Counted from the stretch's first letter, positions 11,590 to 28,035 are shown. The stretch is DNA of 64,000 nucleotides from an uncultured Candidatus Rokubacteria bacterium (GCA_963771355.1 CAVYTA010000006.1:224001-288000), one strand, 5' to 3'. Notes: generated from the letters alone by a model not told the origin. Translations and numbers: made by a program.

Positions 11590-13608
<2,019 letters not shown>

Positions 13609-13609
<1 letters not shown>

Positions 13610-14571
13610 TGAGCGATACCCTCGCGTTCCTGCTCCAGTACGGCTACGTGATTCTCTACGCCTGCGTGCTGGCCGAGCAGGTCGGGCTTCCGGTCCCCGC
13701 GGTGCCGGTCCTGCTCGGGATGGGCGCGCTCGCCGGCGCCGGAGAGATGAGCCTGCCGCTCGCGCTCGGCGTGGTGCTGGCAGCGTCCTTGCCGCCGGAC
13801 CTCGTCTGGTACGAGCTCGGGCGGCGCCGTGGTCCGCGAGTGCTCGCTCGCATCTGCGCGATCTCGCTCGAGCCGGACTGGTGCGTCCGGCGGACCGAGA
13901 GCATGTTCATCCGGTTCGGCCGGAAGCTCCTGCTGGTCGCGAAGTTCCTGCCCGGGCTGAGCGCGGTGGCCTCGCCGCTGGCCGGGTCGGCCGGCGTGGC
14001 GCGGTGGCAGTTCGTCCTGCTCGACGTCACCGGCGCGCTGCTATGGGCCGGAACCTGGATGGGGATCGGCTATGCTTTCAGCGAGGCCCTGGACGTGGTG
14101 GCGGGTTGGGTCGCCCGGCTCGGCGGCTATGCGCTGCTGCTCGCGGGGGCCGCCTTGGCTGCCTACGTCGTGTTGAAGTATGCCAAGCGGCAGCGCATCT
14201 TCCGAGAGCTGCGGATGGCGCGCATCACCCCCGACGAGCTCAGGCGCCGGATCGACGCCGGCGACGGCGGCCTGGCCATCATCGACACCCGATCGGCGCT
14301 GGACGTGAGGGCGGTGCCCTTTCTGATCCCCGGCGCGATACGGATCGACGCCGACGAGGTCGAACGGCGCCACGCCGAGCTGCCGAAGGACCGAGAAATC
14401 GTCTTGTACTGCACCTGACCCAATGAAGCCACGAGCGCCCGGGTGGCGCTACGGCTCAAGCGACTCGGCTTCATGCGGGTCCGGCCCCTTCTGGGTGGCA
14501 TCGCGCTGTGGATGGACCAGAAATTCCCCGTGGAGGACATCCCGGAGCTTTTACTCGGTCCGCGCCCATGA
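13609..14571 (+). CDS. DedA (VTT) + rhodanese-domain membrane protein; predicted selenoprotein (TGA=Sec at 14416-14418, U270 of 320 aa)
   Basis: DedA motifs (EQVGLPVP, AKFLPG), then rhodanese DREIVLYCT-TGA-PNEATSARVALRLKRLGFMRVRPLLGGIALW up to a stop at 14569-14571; family motif recalled as YCxCPNE; hairpin follows the TGA. Confidence 0.85.
14424..14458 (+). promoter_or_regulatory. Candidate bacterial SECIS element (DedA-rhodanese)
   Basis: Upper stem AGCGCC/GGCGCT (14434-14450) with loop CGGGT at +22 to +26 from the UGA; lower stem TGA(A)GCC/GGCTCA. Confidence 0.7.
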
Positions 14572-14699
14572 CTCGTCGGTCGCCCGACGCCATGGGACCT
14601 TTTGCGGCCATGTTTCCGTGCACTTGCCGCCGGGTCGTGCTGGCTCGGTCGAGCTGGAAGCTAGTGAAGCGGCCGAGCCATCAAAAGGGCGTGGCTCAT

Positions 14700-16007
14700 A
14701 TGTTCCGTCTTCTGGGTAGTGTGGCGCTGATCGGGATGTTCTCGGGCCTGGTGGCCTGCGATCGGTCGCCTCAGGTCAACGCCGCCCCCAAGCCGCCCGC
14801 GGTCACGGTGGTGGCGGTCGCGCAACGCTCGGTCCCCGTGTACGGCCAGTACGTGGGTCAGACGGAAGCGGTGAAGACGGTCGAGGTGCGGGCGCGGGTC
14901 GAGGGCTTCATCGAGCGGCAGGTAGCGCCCGACGGGGCCAACGTCAAGGCGGGCGATCTCCTCTTCGTCATCGATGCGCGCCCCTTGCAGGCCGCGCTCC
15001 GCCAGGCGGAGGCCAATGTCGCCCGCGACAGCGCCGCGCTTCATCAGGCGGAAGCAGCCCTGACTCAGCGCGAGGCCGATGTGCGCCAGGCGCAGGCCAA
15101 TGTCGAGCGCGACGTCGCGCAGGCCGAGAATGCCCGCACGCAGGAAGGGCGCTATCGCGCCCTCCTCGAGAAAGAGCTGATCGCCCGCGAGCAGTACGAC
15201 CAGATCCGCACCAACATGACCGCGCTGGAGGCTACCGCGCAGGCCGACCGCGCCGCCCTCGAGAACGCGCGGGCCGCGCTCGCCGCCTCCCGGGCCGCCA
15301 TCGAGAACGCGCGGGCCTCGGTCCGCGCCAACGAGGCCGCGGCCGACAGCGCCCGGCTCCAGCTCGACTACACCTCCATCAGATCGCCGCTGGACGGGCG
15401 CATGGGGCGGGCCGAGGTCCGGGTGGGGGCGCTGGTCGGTAAGGGCGACGCCACGCTCCTGGCCACGGTGTCCACGCTCGATCCGATGTACGTCAGCTTC
15501 AGCGTGAGCGAGCGCGAGGCGCTGTCCGTGTGGGGGCGTCGCCGGGCGGAGATGCCGGCGCAGCCGAGCGTCTCCGGCATCACCCTGACGCTCCCGGACG
15601 ATACCCGGTACGCGCACGACGGGCGGCTCGACTTCGTCGACCGCGCGGTGGACCCGCGGACGGGCACCCTCGCTCTGCGCGCCGCCTTCCCGAACCCGGA
15701 GCGCAAGCTCCAGCCGGGCCAGTACGTACGGATCCAGGTCCTCCTCTCCGAGCGCCCCGACGCACTCGTCGTGCCTCAGGCCGCGATCCAGGAGAGCCAG
15801 GGTTCGGCGTCGCTGTTCGTGGTCGCGCCGGATCAGACAGTGCAGACACGTGCGGTGCGGATGGGACCGCGCCTGGGACCGCTGTGGGTCGTCGAGGAAG
15901 GCGTGAAGCCCGGCGAGCACGTCGTGGTCAAGGGCCTCCAGCAGATCCGGACCGGGATCCGCGTGGAGCCGACCCTGGAGCCCCTTCCGGCCGCCACCGG
16001 GGGCTAG
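14700..16007 (+). CDS. RND efflux periplasmic adaptor (membrane fusion) lipoprotein
   Basis: Lipobox LVAC, VEVRARVEG, coiled-coil hairpin, IRSPLDG, VDPRTGT. Confidence 0.92.
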   Translation: MFRLLGSVALIGMFSGLVACDRSPQVNAAPKPPAVTVVAVAQRSVPVYGQYVGQTEAVKTVEVRARVEGFIERQVAPDGANVKAGDLLFVIDARPLQAALRQAEANVARDSAALHQAEAALTQREADVRQAQANVERDVAQAENARTQEGRYRALLEKELIAREQYDQIRTNMTALEATAQADRAALENARAALAASRAAIENARASVRANEAAADSARLQLDYTSIRSPLDGRMGRAEVRVGALVGKGDATLLATVSTLDPMYVSFSVSEREALSVWGRRRAEMPAQPSVSGITLTLPDDTRYAHDGRLDFVDRAVDPRTGTLALRAAFPNPERKLQPGQYVRIQVLLSERPDALVVPQAAIQESQGSASLFVVAPDQTVQTRAVRMGPRLGPLWVVEEGVKPGEHVVVKGLQQIRTGIRVEPTLEPLPAATGG

Positions 16008-16013
16008 CCGCCG

Positions 16014-19000
16014 ATGTTCGTCAACTTCTTCATCGACCGCCCGATCTTTGCCTCGGTGCTCGCCATCGTCATCGTGGTGGCCGGCGCGGTGGCGATTCCG
16101 TTCCTGCCCATCGCGCAGTTTCCCGAGATCACGCCGCCGCAGGTGGTGGTGACCGCCACCTATCCGGGGGCGAGCGCCGAGGTCGTGGAGCAGACGGTGG
16201 CCACGCCCATCGAGCAGCAGGTCAACGGCGTCGAGGACATGATCTACATGTCCTCCCGCAGCGGCAGCGATGGCACGATGACGCTCACGGTGACGTTCAA
16301 GGTCGGTGCCGACCTCGACATCGCCGCCGTGAACGTGCAGAACCGCGTCTCCATCGCCCAGGCGAAGCTGCCCGCGGATGTGACCCGGCAGGGGATCACC
16401 ATCACCAAGCAAAGTCCGGATCTCGTCGAGATCGTCGCCTTGGTCTCCCCCGACGGGAGCCGCGACGAGCTCTACCTGGCGAACTACGCCACGCTCCAGG
16501 TCGTGGACGTGCTGGCGCGGGTGCCCGGGGTGGGGCAGGTGACCGTCTTCAACGGGCGGGACTATGGCATGCGGCTCTGGCTGAACCCCGACCGGCTCGC
16601 CGGCCTGGGGCTCACCGCCGGGGACGTGGCCGACGCGGTCCGGGAGCAGAACCTCCAGGCCGCCGCCGGTCAGATCGGCCAGCCGCCGTCACTCCCCGGG
16701 CAGCAGTTCCAGTACACGGTCACCACGCGTGGGCGCCTGTCGACGCCGGCCGAATTCGAGGACATCATCCTCCGCACGCGGTCCGACGGCTCGCTGCTCC
16801 GCGTCCGTGACGTCGCCCGGGTCGAGCTGGGCGCCCAGAGCTATGGGTCCTTCGGCCGAGTGGGCGGGAAGCCGGCCGCGCTCATCGGCATCTTCCAGCT
16901 GCCCGGCGCCAACGCCCTCGAGGTGTCGAAAGGGGTCCAGGCGGCGGTGGCGCGGCTCGCCCCGAGCTTTCCGGGTGGGGTCACCCATGAGCGCCCGTAC
17001 AACACGACGGAGTTCGTCCGGGTCTCGATCGAGGAGGTCGTGCTGACCCTCCTCATCGCGATCGGCCTCGTCGTCCTCACCGTCTACGTCTTCCTGCAGG
17101 ACTGGCGGGCCACCCTCATCCCGACCCTGACCATCCCGGTGTCGCTGGTGGGGACCTTCGCCGTCATCAGCGTGTTCGGGTTCTCGATCAATACGCTGAC
17201 GCTCTTCGGCCTCGTCCTGGCCATCGGGATCGTGGTGGACGACGCCATCGTGGTGGTGGAGAACACCCAGCGGCACCTCGACGAGGAGGGCTTGGATCCG
17301 CGCGAGGCGGCCCGTCGAGCGACCGCGGAAGTGGTGGGCCCGGTCATCGCCACCGCGCTCGTGTTGATGGCGGTGTTCATCCCGATCGCCTTCCTGCCCG
17401 GCATCACCGGCCAGCTCTACCGGCAGTTCGCGCTGACCATCGCGGTGTCGGTGGCGCTGTCCGCGCTGAATGCGCTCACGCTGACCCCGGCGCTGTGCGC
17501 GCTCCTCCTCCGTCCCGCCGGCGCGGCCCGGAAGCGCTGGCTCGGCCGGGTCTGGGACGCGGGGTTTCTCCGGCTCACCAACGGCTACGATCGGACCGTC
17601 CGGCGCATCGTCCGGCGGGCCGGGCTCGCGGTGGTGGTGCTGCTGCTCCTGGGCGGCGCCGCCTACGCGTTGCTGCGCGTGGTGCCCACGGGCTTCGCGC
17701 CCACCGAGGACCAGGGCTATCTGCTCGTCAACGCCCAGCTCCCCGACGCCGCCTCCGTGGAGCGCACCGACGCCGTCGTTCGCCAGATCGAGCAGATCCT
17801 GCTCGAGACGCCCGGTGTCGAGACGGTGGTGGCCATCGGCGGGCGCAGCTTCATCACGGGCGTCAATGGCCCGAACGTGGCCTCCCTCTTCCCCCGGCTC
17901 ACGGAGTGGTCCCATCGGAAGGCGCCCGAGCTCCAGGCCGGAGCCATCCTGGCCCGCCTGCGCGCGCGCCTCGGCAGCATCCAGGAGGCCTCCATCGTGG
18001 TCTTTCCGCCGCCCCCCATCCGGGGTATCAGCTCCGGCGGCGGGTTCCAGTTCGAGCTGCAAAGCGTGGGCGGCGGCTCGCTCCAGGAGCTCGACGCCAC
18101 CGCCCGGAAGATCATGGACGCAGCCCGCCAGCGTCCGGAGCTGGCGGCGACCTTCACGGGGTTCCGGCCGGGCGTGCCGCAGCTCGACGCGCAGGTGGAC
18201 CGCGCCAAGGCCAAGGCGCTCGGGGTGCCGCTGTCCGACGTCTTCTCGAGCCTGCAGATCTTCCTGGGCTCGCTCTACGTCAACGACTTCAACGCCTTCG
18301 GTCGTGTGTATCGTGTCCAGCTCCAGGCCGAGCCGAGCTTCCGCACCTCCCCCAGCGACGTGGCGCGACTCTATGTCCGGAGCCAGCCCTCCGCCAGCGG
18401 CCAGCCCGCCCAGATGGTGCCGCTGAGCACGCTCGTCTCCGTGAAGCCCATCACCGGGCCCGACACGATCTCCCACTACAATCTCTATCGGACGGCGGAG
18501 ATCGCGGGTGACACGGCGCCCGGCGCCAGCTCCGGTCAGGCCATCGCGGCCATGCAGGACGTGGCGCGCACCGTCATGCCACCCGGCATGTCATATGAGT
18601 GGACGGGCCTCGCCTTCCAGGAGATCGAGGCGGGCAGCCGCGCGGGGTTCGTCTTCGGCCTGTCCGCGCTCTTCGTCTTCCTCGTCCTGGCCGCCCAGTA
18701 CGAGAGCTGGCTCGTCCCTCTGGCGGTGCTCCTGGCGGTGCCACTCGGTGTGCTCGGCGCGCTGGGGGCCCTCTGGATGAGCGGCCTGGCCAACGACGTG
18801 TATGCCCAGATCGGCCTCGCGCTCCTCATCGGGCTGGCGAGCAAGAACGCCATCCTCATCGTGGAGTTCGCCAAGGAGCGCCGGGAGCACGGGACCGAGA
18901 TCCAGGAAGCGGCGCGGGAAGCCGCCCGGCTGCGCTTCCGACCCATCCTGATGACGTCCTTCGCGTTCATTCTGGGCTCGCTTCCGCTGGTCTTCGCGTC

Positions 19001-19190
19001 GGGAGCGGGCGCCGCCAGCCGGAACTCGATGGGCACCACGGTGGTGGGCGGGATGCTCGCGGTGACGGTGCTCGGCGTGCTGCTCGTCCCGGCCTTCTAC
19101 GTCGCGGTGGAGAAGCTCGCGGAGTGGCGGAAACGCCCCGAACCGATCCCCGCTCCGCCGGCCGATCGCGCCATCGAGAGGTCGCGTTAG
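16014..19190 (+). CDS. RND efflux permease, HAE1 (AcrB/MexF-like)
   Basis: FFIDRPIFA, GIVVDDAIVVVEN, KNAILIVEFA, RFRPILMTS; 1058 aa. Confidence 0.96.
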   Translation: MFVNFFIDRPIFASVLAIVIVVAGAVAIPFLPIAQFPEITPPQVVVTATYPGASAEVVEQTVATPIEQQVNGVEDMIYMSSRSGSDGTMTLTVTFKVGADLDIAAVNVQNRVSIAQAKLPADVTRQGITITKQSPDLVEIVALVSPDGSRDELYLANYATLQVVDVLARVPGVGQVTVFNGRDYGMRLWLNPDRLAGLGLTAGDVADAVREQNLQAAAGQIGQPPSLPGQQFQYTVTTRGRLSTPAEFEDIILRTRSDGSLLRVRDVARVELGAQSYGSFGRVGGKPAALIGIFQLPGANALEVSKGVQAAVARLAPSFPGGVTHERPYNTTEFVRVSIEEVVLTLLIAIGLVVLTVYVFLQDWRATLIPTLTIPVSLVGTFAVISVFGFSINTLTLFGLVLAIGIVVDDAIVVVENTQRHLDEEGLDPREAARRATAEVVGPVIATALVLMAVFIPIAFLPGITGQLYRQFALTIAVSVALSALNALTLTPALCALLLRPAGAARKRWLGRVWDAGFLRLTNGYDRTVRRIVRRAGLAVVVLLLLGGAAYALLRVVPTGFAPTEDQGYLLVNAQLPDAASVERTDAVVRQIEQILLETPGVETVVAIGGRSFITGVNGPNVASLFPRLTEWSHRKAPELQAGAILARLRARLGSIQEASIVVFPPPPIRGISSGGGFQFELQSVGGGSLQELDATARKIMDAARQRPELAATFTGFRPGVPQLDAQVDRAKAKALGVPLSDVFSSLQIFLGSLYVNDFNAFGRVYRVQLQAEPSFRTSPSDVARLYVRSQPSASGQPAQMVPLSTLVSVKPITGPDTISHYNLYRTAEIAGDTAPGASSGQAIAAMQDVARTVMPPGMSYEWTGLAFQEIEAGSRAGFVFGLSALFVFLVLAAQYESWLVPLAVLLAVPLGVLGALGALWMSGLANDVYAQIGLALLIGLASKNAILIVEFAKERREHGTEIQEAAREAARLRFRPILMTSFAFILGSLPLVFASGAGAASRNSMGTTVVGGMLAVTVLGVLLVPAFYVAVEKLAEWRKRPEPIPAPPADRAIERSR

Positions 19191-27069: not shown

Positions 27070-28035
27070 CCGCGCGGCAGCCTGGGCATCGGCGAGGGCC
27101 ATGCGCGCACGGGAGCTGGCTCGCGACAGGCGCGGACGTGGCGATCGTGTCGCGCCCCAAGGACATGCTGGAAGAGAAGGCCCGCGGCCGGCGAGCGGCC
27201 CCGGCCGCCGGAACGCGAGCGTCCCGTCGGCCCTCGGCCGACGTGACCAGCCGTCCCACGTGCACCGCATGGTGATGCAGGCGACAGAGCAGCGCGAGAT
27301 TCGAGAGCGTCGTCGGGCCGCCCTGCGCCCAGTGGTGGAGATGGTGCCCCTCGGCGATGCGAACACCGCAACCCGGGAACCGACAGCCCCGGTCCCGATG
27401 GTGTAGGGCCCGGCGCAGGGCGGGCGGAATGGTCCGGGTCCGCGCGCCGATCGCCACGACATGCCCGTCTCTTCCCATGGCGCATCACTGTGCGGTTCGC
27501 TTCACTGGTCAGACTCCGCCACGTTCCGCGGAACGTGCGCGCCGTCCCCAGCGCCGTCGCGGCTGCCCCGGTCGGCAGAACCTGGCGTCGACAAGGATTC
27601 CACCACCTGATATCGTACGTGGGGCACCCGGTCGAGCGCGTGATGCAGCGCCGTCTCCGTCATGAAGGAGCAGCGCTCGGCGCCGCTCATCATCGTCGGC
27701 GGGCTCACCGCCGGCACTGCCGCATCTGCGGCGGCGGCCTGCCGCACTCGTGGCTGCAGCACGTCAAGACCCTGGCCGTCCAGCGCGGCCGAGGAGCGCG
27801 CCACTTCGGCATCGAGCGGTCCCCGAACTACGAGCATGCCGGCATCGCCCGCAGACCTGGAGCGCCGCGGCCTTCTCGCCGCGCGCGCCACGGCGCTGGG
27901 CGCATCGACCTGCCGCCAGACGTGGAGGAGGCGCTCGACATGCGCAGTCGTCCCCGCGGCCCCATCCGCGATCGAGGCGGGCCACCGATCGCCGGTGTGG
28001 CGCCGCGTTGCTCGCACCGACAAGGCGTGGGCCAT
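27070..28035 (-). pseudogene. Degraded DUF222/HNH endonuclease gene
   Basis: RTIPPALRRALHHRDRGCRFPGC...GHHLHHWAQGGPTTLSNLALLCRLHHHAVH, plus upstream fragments in other frames; limits approximate. Confidence 0.75.

Follow-up and report, generated by a model that had tools for sequence, protein, structure and literature searches.

Does the gene that begins at position 13,609 of this DNA end at its first in-frame TGA, or is that codon read as selenocysteine (Sec)? The DNA is a 64,000-nucleotide stretch from an uncultured Candidatus Rokubacteria bacterium (GCA_963771355.1, CAVYTA010000006.1:224001-288000), hereafter the window, and the gene (13609..14571, plus strand) joins a DedA-type membrane domain to a rhodanese domain. 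Our answer, reached by comparing sequences, is that this is almost certainly a genuine selenoprotein gene in which UGA270 is decoded as Sec. Taken as a whole, the observations are very probably best explained by a 320-residue inner-membrane selenoprotein.

The layout of the frame is easily described. Its 269 sense codons, ending ...EIVLYCT, run into the TGA at codon 270 (motif LYCTU-PNEATS), and past that codon the frame stays open for another 50 sense codons (PNEATSARVALRLKRLGFMRVRPLLGGIALW...; full peptide PNEATSARVALRLKRLGFMRVRPLLGGIALWMDQKFPVEDIPELLLGPRP) until a second TGA closes it. Pfam recognizes both domains, VTT/DedA and Rhodanese (Table 1), and the rhodanese match runs across the first TGA. 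A reading of the window made from sequence alone (the sequence-only reading) had described this TGA, the 50 further codons, the completion of the rhodanese by them, and a hairpin behind the TGA, all of which are present as described; an in-frame TGA, a complete rhodanese, and a hairpin together are far beyond chance. The position of the start codon agrees among relatives, 19 of 20 loci having 269 ± 1 codons before the TGA. Contigs from two DNA runs belonging to two studies (X13 record 1 and X2 record 31) bridge the TGA unchanged, one of the runs possibly being the source sample of the window itself. Contigs from RNA libraries (X15 records 12-14) match parts of the gene at no less than 98% identity, none of them across the TGA, and may stem from DNA carry-over.

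Selenocysteine or cysteine at codon 270

What do relatives carry at this codon? We compared 100 related loci, consisting of 20 loci of relatives and 80 from other species; the latter are the best 80 of 590 relatives found in a scan with one genome per species, in which Cys92 was part of the retrieval pattern. Across the 100, column 270 reads TGA in 75 and TGC or TGT, that is, cysteine, in 25. All 20 loci of relatives have TGA with the downstream peptide conserved. Among the other 80, the motif alone gave 54 TGA, 17 TGC, and 8 TGT; one locus missed by the motif (L050) keeps the TGA column and has Tyr at 268 (Y268 with U270), bringing the count to 55 TGA versus 25 TGC/TGT. These 80 loci are labeled Rokubacteria/Methylomirabilota, Acidobacteriota, Nitrospirota, Verrucomicrobiota, “delta proteobacterium,” Dormibacterota, and others. 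In 41 related genomes, of which 25 have the fusion, 31 full-length matches turned up; 29 carry the TGA and align through residue ~311, and two have no TGA.

The peptide beyond the TGA behaves as a protein sequence. Down to 45-50% protein identity, some 40 residues past the codon are kept while synonymous sites vary, and the 20 fetched loci all share the consensus [LV]YC[TSA]U-P[NDS]EA[TS]SAR…RVRPLxGGxxxW. Two alignments were built: A1, which sets the gene beside 19 relatives and one Cys form, and A2, of Cys forms from protein searches. One row of A1, L036 (also among the 20 loci of relatives), is from a genome flagged as unpublished, G016, and no conclusion stands on that row alone. In A1, S276, A277, R278, G296, G297, and W301 are invariant after the TGA. 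The sequence-only reading had stated that homologues read YCxCPNE and had expected the 50 downstream codons to be conserved and to finish the rhodanese fold. Both expectations held, the first in the 25 of 80 loci with Cys in the TGA column and in P0095 (the nearest full-length database protein, 59% identical, a Cys form reading LYCSCPDE), the second in A1 and in the Pfam match across the TGA. Its proposal that the TGA is a Sec codon is supported by this column pattern, by the contrast in the hairpin, and by the sel genes.

The hairpin was compared between 69 distinct Sec-form and 25 Cys-form sequences, with positions counted from the T of the TGA. In the Sec forms the segment from +18 to +34, AGCGCC-CGKGY-GGCGCT, is nearly invariant; all six base pairs of the stem form in 65 of the 69, versus 5 of the 25 Cys forms, as befits the conserved element of SECIS (selenocysteine insertion sequence) type that had been proposed. 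Entropy at four third-codon positions in the stem is 0-0.11 bits in the Sec forms versus 1.1-1.4 bits in the Cys forms, and third positions of the Sec forms elsewhere or in the flanks average 1.49 bits. The pair +17/+35, possibly an extension of the stem, alternates between C-G (24) and G-C (15), and the G at +25 in the loop is kept. According to the Sargasso Sea paper (PMC1088965), bacterial SECIS elements commonly have a small apical loop that contains a guanosine. When soil and rhizosphere contigs are aligned with the window, the same nucleotide-level conservation appears in another way, as a several-fold depth spike limited to 14387-14480; its source is the many foreign contigs that match just ~14401-14450 (~50 nt) and diverge on either side. 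A scan of 13000-15500 against Rfam (E ≤ 10) gave chance-level matches and no bacterial SECIS family. Folding 14410-14500 as a single sequence gave a modest z-score (-1.58), and it is the comparison, not the fold, that singles out the hairpin.

In the same genome, contig 7 carries tRNA-SeC (anticodon tca) with selA (555 bits) and selB (367 bits) next to it, and contig 4 carries selD (266 bits); all four score above curated cut-offs. We take the TGA for a Sec codon because four independent lines converge: the Sec/Cys pattern, the hairpin, the sel machinery, and a domain type already catalogued among selenoproteins. In the mechanism that we propose, the UGA at codon 270 would be decoded as Sec by tRNA-Sec and SelB, recruited by the 17-nt hairpin that begins 15 nt downstream.

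As a separate observation, the LYCxU-plus-hairpin segment (14387-14480) could act as a nucleotide probe for metagenomic Sec forms of the family.

Table 1. Features of the DedA-rhodanese gene and its immediate context, in window coordinates
Feature	Position	Strand	Details
Full coding sequence, DedA-rhodanese selenoprotein (predicted)	13609..14571	+	320 residues with U270; closing TGA at 14569-14571; translated with TGA=U; full-length alignment
ATG start	13609..13611	+	One-base overlap with the stop (TGA, 13607-13609) of the monooxygenase-like open reading frame (ORF) upstream
DedA/VTT membrane domain (aa 29-155)	13693..14073	+	PF09335, 36.1 bits; hhalign to E. coli YghB, probability 97.4%
Codon of Cys83, first of the subfamily-specific pair (C-x3-LEPD-x-C)	13855..13857	+	Invariant in A1 and A2; 100/100 fusion loci
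Codon of Cys92, second of the pair (C83-x8-C92)	13882..13884	+	Invariant in A1 and A2
Last predicted membrane helix (aa 173-200)	14125..14208	+	AlphaFold2 helix; then basic stretch KYAKRQRIFRELRMAR into the rhodanese domain
Rhodanese domain (aa 207-303)	14227..14517	+	PF00581, 43.6 bits; NF041203, 92.3 bits; solved rhodanese domains matched by Foldseek and phmmer
Codon of Cys268, end of the central rhodanese strand	14410..14412	+	Translation, alignment, AlphaFold2 model, structure matches
TGA read as selenocysteine (U270; predicted)	14416..14418	+	TGA/Cys column pattern in related loci; sel genes and tRNA-Sec in the genome
SECIS-type hairpin AGCGCC-CGGGT-GGCGCT	14434..14450	+	6-bp stem 14434-14439/14445-14450; 5-nt loop CGGGU 14440-14444; 15 nt past the UGA
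Baeyer-Villiger monooxygenase (BVMO)-type flavin monooxygenase (context, probably outside the system)	11864..13609	+	Pfam FMO-like, Pyr_redox_3; NCBIfam PtlE-like, 303 bits, below cut-off
Resistance-nodulation-division (RND) adaptor 14700-16007 and permease 16014-19190 (context)	14700..19190	+	Multidrug (HAE1) type; TIGR01730 (270.9 bits) and NF000282 (1382 bits) each exceed their cut-off

The rhodanese domain and its C-x-U motif

What might a Sec residue do at this place in a rhodanese? The AlphaFold2 model (predicted local distance difference test 85, predicted template modeling score 0.74) has helices to residue 200 and beyond it a rhodanese fold whose strand at 263-267 leads through a loop (268-273) into a helix (274-285). 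Against the PDB, Foldseek hits were confined to the rhodanese domain, and no solved DedA structure came up. With both domains of 6mxv the alignment is gapless and U270 falls on the catalytic Cys; the end of the strand, as modeled, favors C268 as the canonical catalytic position. Natural variants without either C268 or a Cys/Sec at residue 270 exist, and a UxU form has been described earlier (PMC1976440). We read C268-x-U270 as a chalcogen pair, not as one catalytic residue and a bystander, because the alignment depends on the template, and because of the natural variants, the mirror motif LYUACPHE of a second rhodanese (below), and the UxU form. That Cys268 and Sec270 in the active-site loop are the reactive center is a prediction that we consider somewhat better than even. 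The pair would carry sulfane sulfur or cycle through a selenenylsulfide.

NF041203 “rhodanese_LYCAU,” which models a rhodanese-related (seleno)protein, outscores the other rhodanese models in all 20 family members. It shares with them the rhodanese fold, a C-x-U after a hydrophobic strand (LYCTU here, LYCAU in the model), and the interchange of Sec and Cys. Unlike our gene product, a membrane protein of 320 residues that is matched from 199 to 310, it describes a single domain of ~126 positions, the first 15 of which are unmatched here. Since the score (92.3 bits versus a cut-off of 115, with none of the 20 members doing better) lies below the cut-off and the protein has more than a single domain, we keep the gene outside this equivalog. 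Of the 20, 19 also show a weak match to ChrE, a chromate-resistance rhodanese.

How new, then, is the family? The sequence-only reading had called it a candidate for a little-known or novel selenoprotein family, and this stands in part. The CxU Sec-rhodanese is already catalogued, not only as NF041203 but also as “form 3” in PMC13188914 and “COG0607 form 2” in PMC9312934; these sources do not list the fusion to DedA, the word “DedA” being absent from the main text of both papers, supplements aside. The literature searched, partly by title, contained no Sec-bearing DedA. DedA-rhodanese fusions are likewise known, as Cys forms, within the COG0586 DedA subfamily (Todor et al., PMC10127716), Pseudomonas aeruginosa PA1209 (311 aa, PMC12893004) being a DedA-rhodanese and a possible member; they have the same PF09335 and PF00581 domains, and Cys forms of the present family make up 25 of the 80 loci and 73 of the 150 cluster representatives described below. 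Selenocysteine is not mentioned for these fusions in the available portions of PMC10127716 and PMC12893004. Sec-rhodanese and DedA-rhodanese are thus each known, and the joining of both appears to be the new part. For the selenoproteome, the gain is a membrane-anchored architecture for a known Sec-rhodanese type.

Public databases give a different picture of the protein. Among the 120 best homologues in a collection of 5.8 billion proteins, nearly all are exactly 269 aa long, down to 64% identity; entries sourced from the National Center for Biotechnology Information are nameless, and the label from the Joint Genome Institute is “membrane protein DedA with SNARE-associated domain.” The 150 best of 1186 representatives (E ≤ 1e-30) of clusters at 50% identity include 43 that stop at 268/269 and 73 Cys forms of full length, in which each of the four cysteines is present. 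Because such entries stop at the Sec codon, annotation, domain statistics, and structure predictions lack the rhodanese active site and the C-terminus; a widespread membrane protein of soil and groundwater is systematically shortened.

Some other rhodanese frames deserve a record here. Outside the window but in the same genome (G000), a putatively secreted rhodanese of 138 residues (G000:C6:847627-848040, minus strand; L023:1501-1914/L134) has a signal-peptide-like N-terminus; its mirror motif, LLYUACPHE (U-x-C), contains a TGA in frame, after which the domain continues and a GC-rich hairpin follows; one TGA is kept in 26 matches of related genomes, and more distant matches are without it. Elsewhere in this genome, also outside the window, a short frame of the stand-alone LYCAU type (G000:C5 ~27100-27340; L021:1456-1689, plus strand) reads …IIFYCAU-PAEASAAGQAAR…GGVQAW…, with a hairpin (GCUGCC…GGCAGC) 15 nt past the TGA; it holds the C-terminal half of the rhodanese alone (model positions 64-124) and is maybe frameshifted or mis-assembled. 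In related genomes (for example, at G011:C150, G024:C13, G015:C162, and G009:C90), many matches to just the rhodanese part (~202-311) have one TGA and lie in open frames of ~500-560 residues, which points to larger rhodanese fusions in Sec form, possibly resembling coenzyme A-disulfide reductase. One copy of the rhodanese part in the genome of the window itself (C7:513412-513744) has no TGA.

The DedA half and the competing explanations

The membrane half is homologous to E. coli YghB/YqjA and Bacillus subtilis UptA, DedA proteins that have been proposed as undecaprenyl-phosphate (UndP) flippases driven by the proton motive force. For proton-driven UndP flipping, Todor et al. (PMC10127716) hold four residues of YghB to be essential: an acidic pair in the first re-entrant tip (Glu39 and Asp51) and a basic pair in the second (Arg130 and Arg136). 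By one profile alignment at 30% identity, our protein keeps two of the four, as E23 for Glu39 and an invariant Lys, K112, for Arg130, and loses the other two, with Val32 at Asp51 (consensus PAVP, beside a 3-residue deletion in the first re-entrant tip) and Ser118 at Arg136. Further differences from these proteins are the extra rhodanese domain and two extra cysteines, C83 and C92. Because two of the four residues credited with that activity are replaced, the substrate of this DedA domain need not be UndP; it may move something other than, or beside, UndP. To judge from the alignments, the partial retention of the flippase residues and the conserved Cys pair of its own are also new.

The Cys pair sits in a very basic helix-loop. 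Taken by itself, the positive-inside rule would place both this loop and the rhodanese domain on the cytoplasmic side. The residues of YghB that face C83 and C92 are Ala and Tyr, and three DedA-only paralogues have R, R, and Y in place of C83. A fusion at locus L133 (LYCASSDD) has neither Sec nor Cys at 270, and has Ser at 83 too. These paralogues and L133 suggested C83 as an obligatory partner of U270, a notion that we set aside since exceptions in both directions among the 150 representatives weaken it; the coupling of C83/C92 to the rhodanese center appears to be a tendency, not a rule. A contact prediction between the DedA and rhodanese portions, in two parts of A2, returned no answer (score 0.00) and speaks neither for nor against contact. 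That the rhodanese center works together with the DedA domain, possibly via Cys83/Cys92, is a tentative idea toward which we lean less than halfway: the C-x-U center would communicate with the DedA domain, perhaps through C83/C92 of the probably cytoplasmic helix-loop.

One DedA-only paralogue from the genome of the window (G000:C6:332778-333374; L129) is 51% identical over residues 2-201, without a rhodanese; it has Arg83 and keeps Cys92.

The role of DedA-rhodanese fusions has been called unclear in the DedA literature (PMC10127716). The Sec center, the Cys pair, and the two lost “flippase” residues argue for redox or sulfur chemistry at the membrane over plain UndP recycling, and the occurrence of Cys forms in culturable bacteria makes the role testable. 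The sequence-only reading had put forward, as a hypothesis, that the protein could couple membrane transport with S/Se transfer. A possible functional analogue of the fusion is the thiosulfate transporter YeeE/YedE with its cytoplasmic sulfurtransferase partner TusA. In both cases a membrane transporter would be served by a cytoplasmic sulfur-carrier or sulfurtransferase module and Sec forms exist, YeeE/YedE being listed as a selenoprotein family (PMC13188914); the present protein differs in having unrelated folds and fused modules. Carried to its end, the analogy would make our protein a fused transporter-plus-sulfurtransferase counterpart, a self-contained chalcogen-trafficking machine, which we regard as a long shot. 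An atypical DedA domain, devoid of equivalents of Asp51 and of the phosphate-binding Arg136, would then move inorganic or small sulfur or selenium species (e.g., selenite, thiosulfate, or polysulfide) across the inner membrane and pass them directly to the Sec270/Cys268 center, with Cys83/Cys92 as a relay. To go by their title, Ledgham et al. in 2005 reportedly tied a DedA protein to selenite by genetics; if true, the trafficking idea would explain that tie.

Several observations weigh against the reading of this gene as a Sec-containing fusion with a working C-x-U center. The stem is invariant, with almost no compensatory changes, so that the argument for Sec rests on frozen synonymous sites and on the contrast with the Cys forms, and the assignment is a comparative one, not one at the level of protein chemistry. 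The residue at the canonical catalytic position changes with the template: alignments with 6pfz, 3tp9, 3nhv, and 5ve3 put C268 there, with two extra loop residues, and 6mxv puts U270 there. The active-site loop has an acidic residue, E273; acidic residues are unusual in the anion-binding loops of sulfurtransferases. Among the 150 representatives, ~9 keep C268/C270 without one or both of the loop cysteines, and ~6 keep the loop cysteines with S, A, or E at 270. Finally, neighborhoods differ among clades, and there is no universal neighbor.

Could the TGA simply be a true stop? The gene would then encode a 269-residue DedA with half a rhodanese, and the downstream frame would be a decaying remnant. 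Every gene caller behind the public entries ends there, and the long frame is likewise closed by a terminal TGA; however, decay is at odds with the conservation of the ~40 downstream residues amid synonymous variation, with Cys codons at the column in 25 of 80 orthologous loci, and with a hairpin retained only alongside TGA, and a rhodanese cut at this point would, on the model, miss its last strand and helices. We put the chance of a true stop close to nil. Read-through by a near-cognate or suppressor tRNA inserting Trp, Cys, or Gly has in its favor that the case for Sec comes without direct selenium chemistry, yet it would leave without explanation a hairpin that lies at the distance of bacterial SECIS elements and is lost in Cys forms. 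It also has to contend with a complete selC-selA-selB cluster plus selD in the genome, with Cys at this position in orthologues, and with a domain type that is a catalogued selenoprotein, and its probability is very slight.

Two further alternatives accept the Sec residue and differ over function. The protein may be an ordinary UndP flippase of the COG0586 type whose Sec-rhodanese is just a redox or stress sensor that switches the flippase on or off. PRK10847 DedA and UptA are its best DedA models; Todor et al. (PMC10127716) place DedA-rhodanese fusions in COG0586; and the MarR, YceI, and nitroreductase neighbors (22, 23, and 25 of 100 loci) resemble a stress operon. YceI is a polyisoprenoid-binding protein. 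Set against this are the four residues deemed essential, two of which are kept, and the UptA and DedA equivalog scores, all far under their cut-offs; what PMC10127716 itself says of the link between rhodanese and UndP is that it is unclear. On balance we find a sensor-gated flippase unlikely. Alternatively, Cys83, Cys92, Cys268, and Sec270 may form a joint soft-metal or metalloid site in a protein that handles Hg, As, Cu, Te, or similar. This would suit four thiol or selenol residues that are invariant in A1 and A2, the several membrane metal transporters among the selenoproteins listed in PMC13188914, and the weak ChrE match of 19 of 20 members; but metal-resistance genes do not recur among the neighbors, the adjoining RND pump is of the multidrug type and not CusA/CzcA, and some variants miss one or two of these residues. 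A metal site of this kind is quite improbable. The preferred reading thus remains the 320-residue Sec-containing DedA-rhodanese, with its C-x-U pair as predicted center.

Gene neighborhood

The sequence-only reading had also pointed to the surrounding genes, a coupled BVMO gene upstream and an RND pump downstream. Both are there, and the ATGA overlap with the BVMO-like gene is real; the weight given to the monooxygenase was overstated. It is adjacent in 4 of the 100 loci, all very close relatives, and carries little functional weight. We therefore rejected the BVMO as a functional partner on this count; the link is genus-specific. The RND adaptor is adjacent in 7 loci and the permease in 8, at loci labeled Methylomirabilota, Nitrospirota, and Acidobacteriota. 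A metal-efflux context was rejected as well, as the pump is of the multidrug type (1382 bits, over cut-off, versus 394 bits, under cut-off, for CusA/CzcA). In a mostly Acidobacteriota-labeled subset the gene comes after genes for a short-chain dehydrogenase/reductase (28 of the 100 loci), MarR (22), YceI (23), and a nitroreductase (25); much of this neighborhood is shared ancestry, since housekeeping genes are conserved alongside.

Between the stop of the selenoprotein gene and the ATG of the RND adaptor (14700) lies a gap of 128 nt (14572-14699), and a consensus scan of the plus strand from 13300 to 14800 found no terminator. The ORF list places the adaptor start at a GTG at 14508, overlapping the end of the selenoprotein gene. 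The N-terminus of the adaptor is lipoprotein-signal-like (…LVAC).

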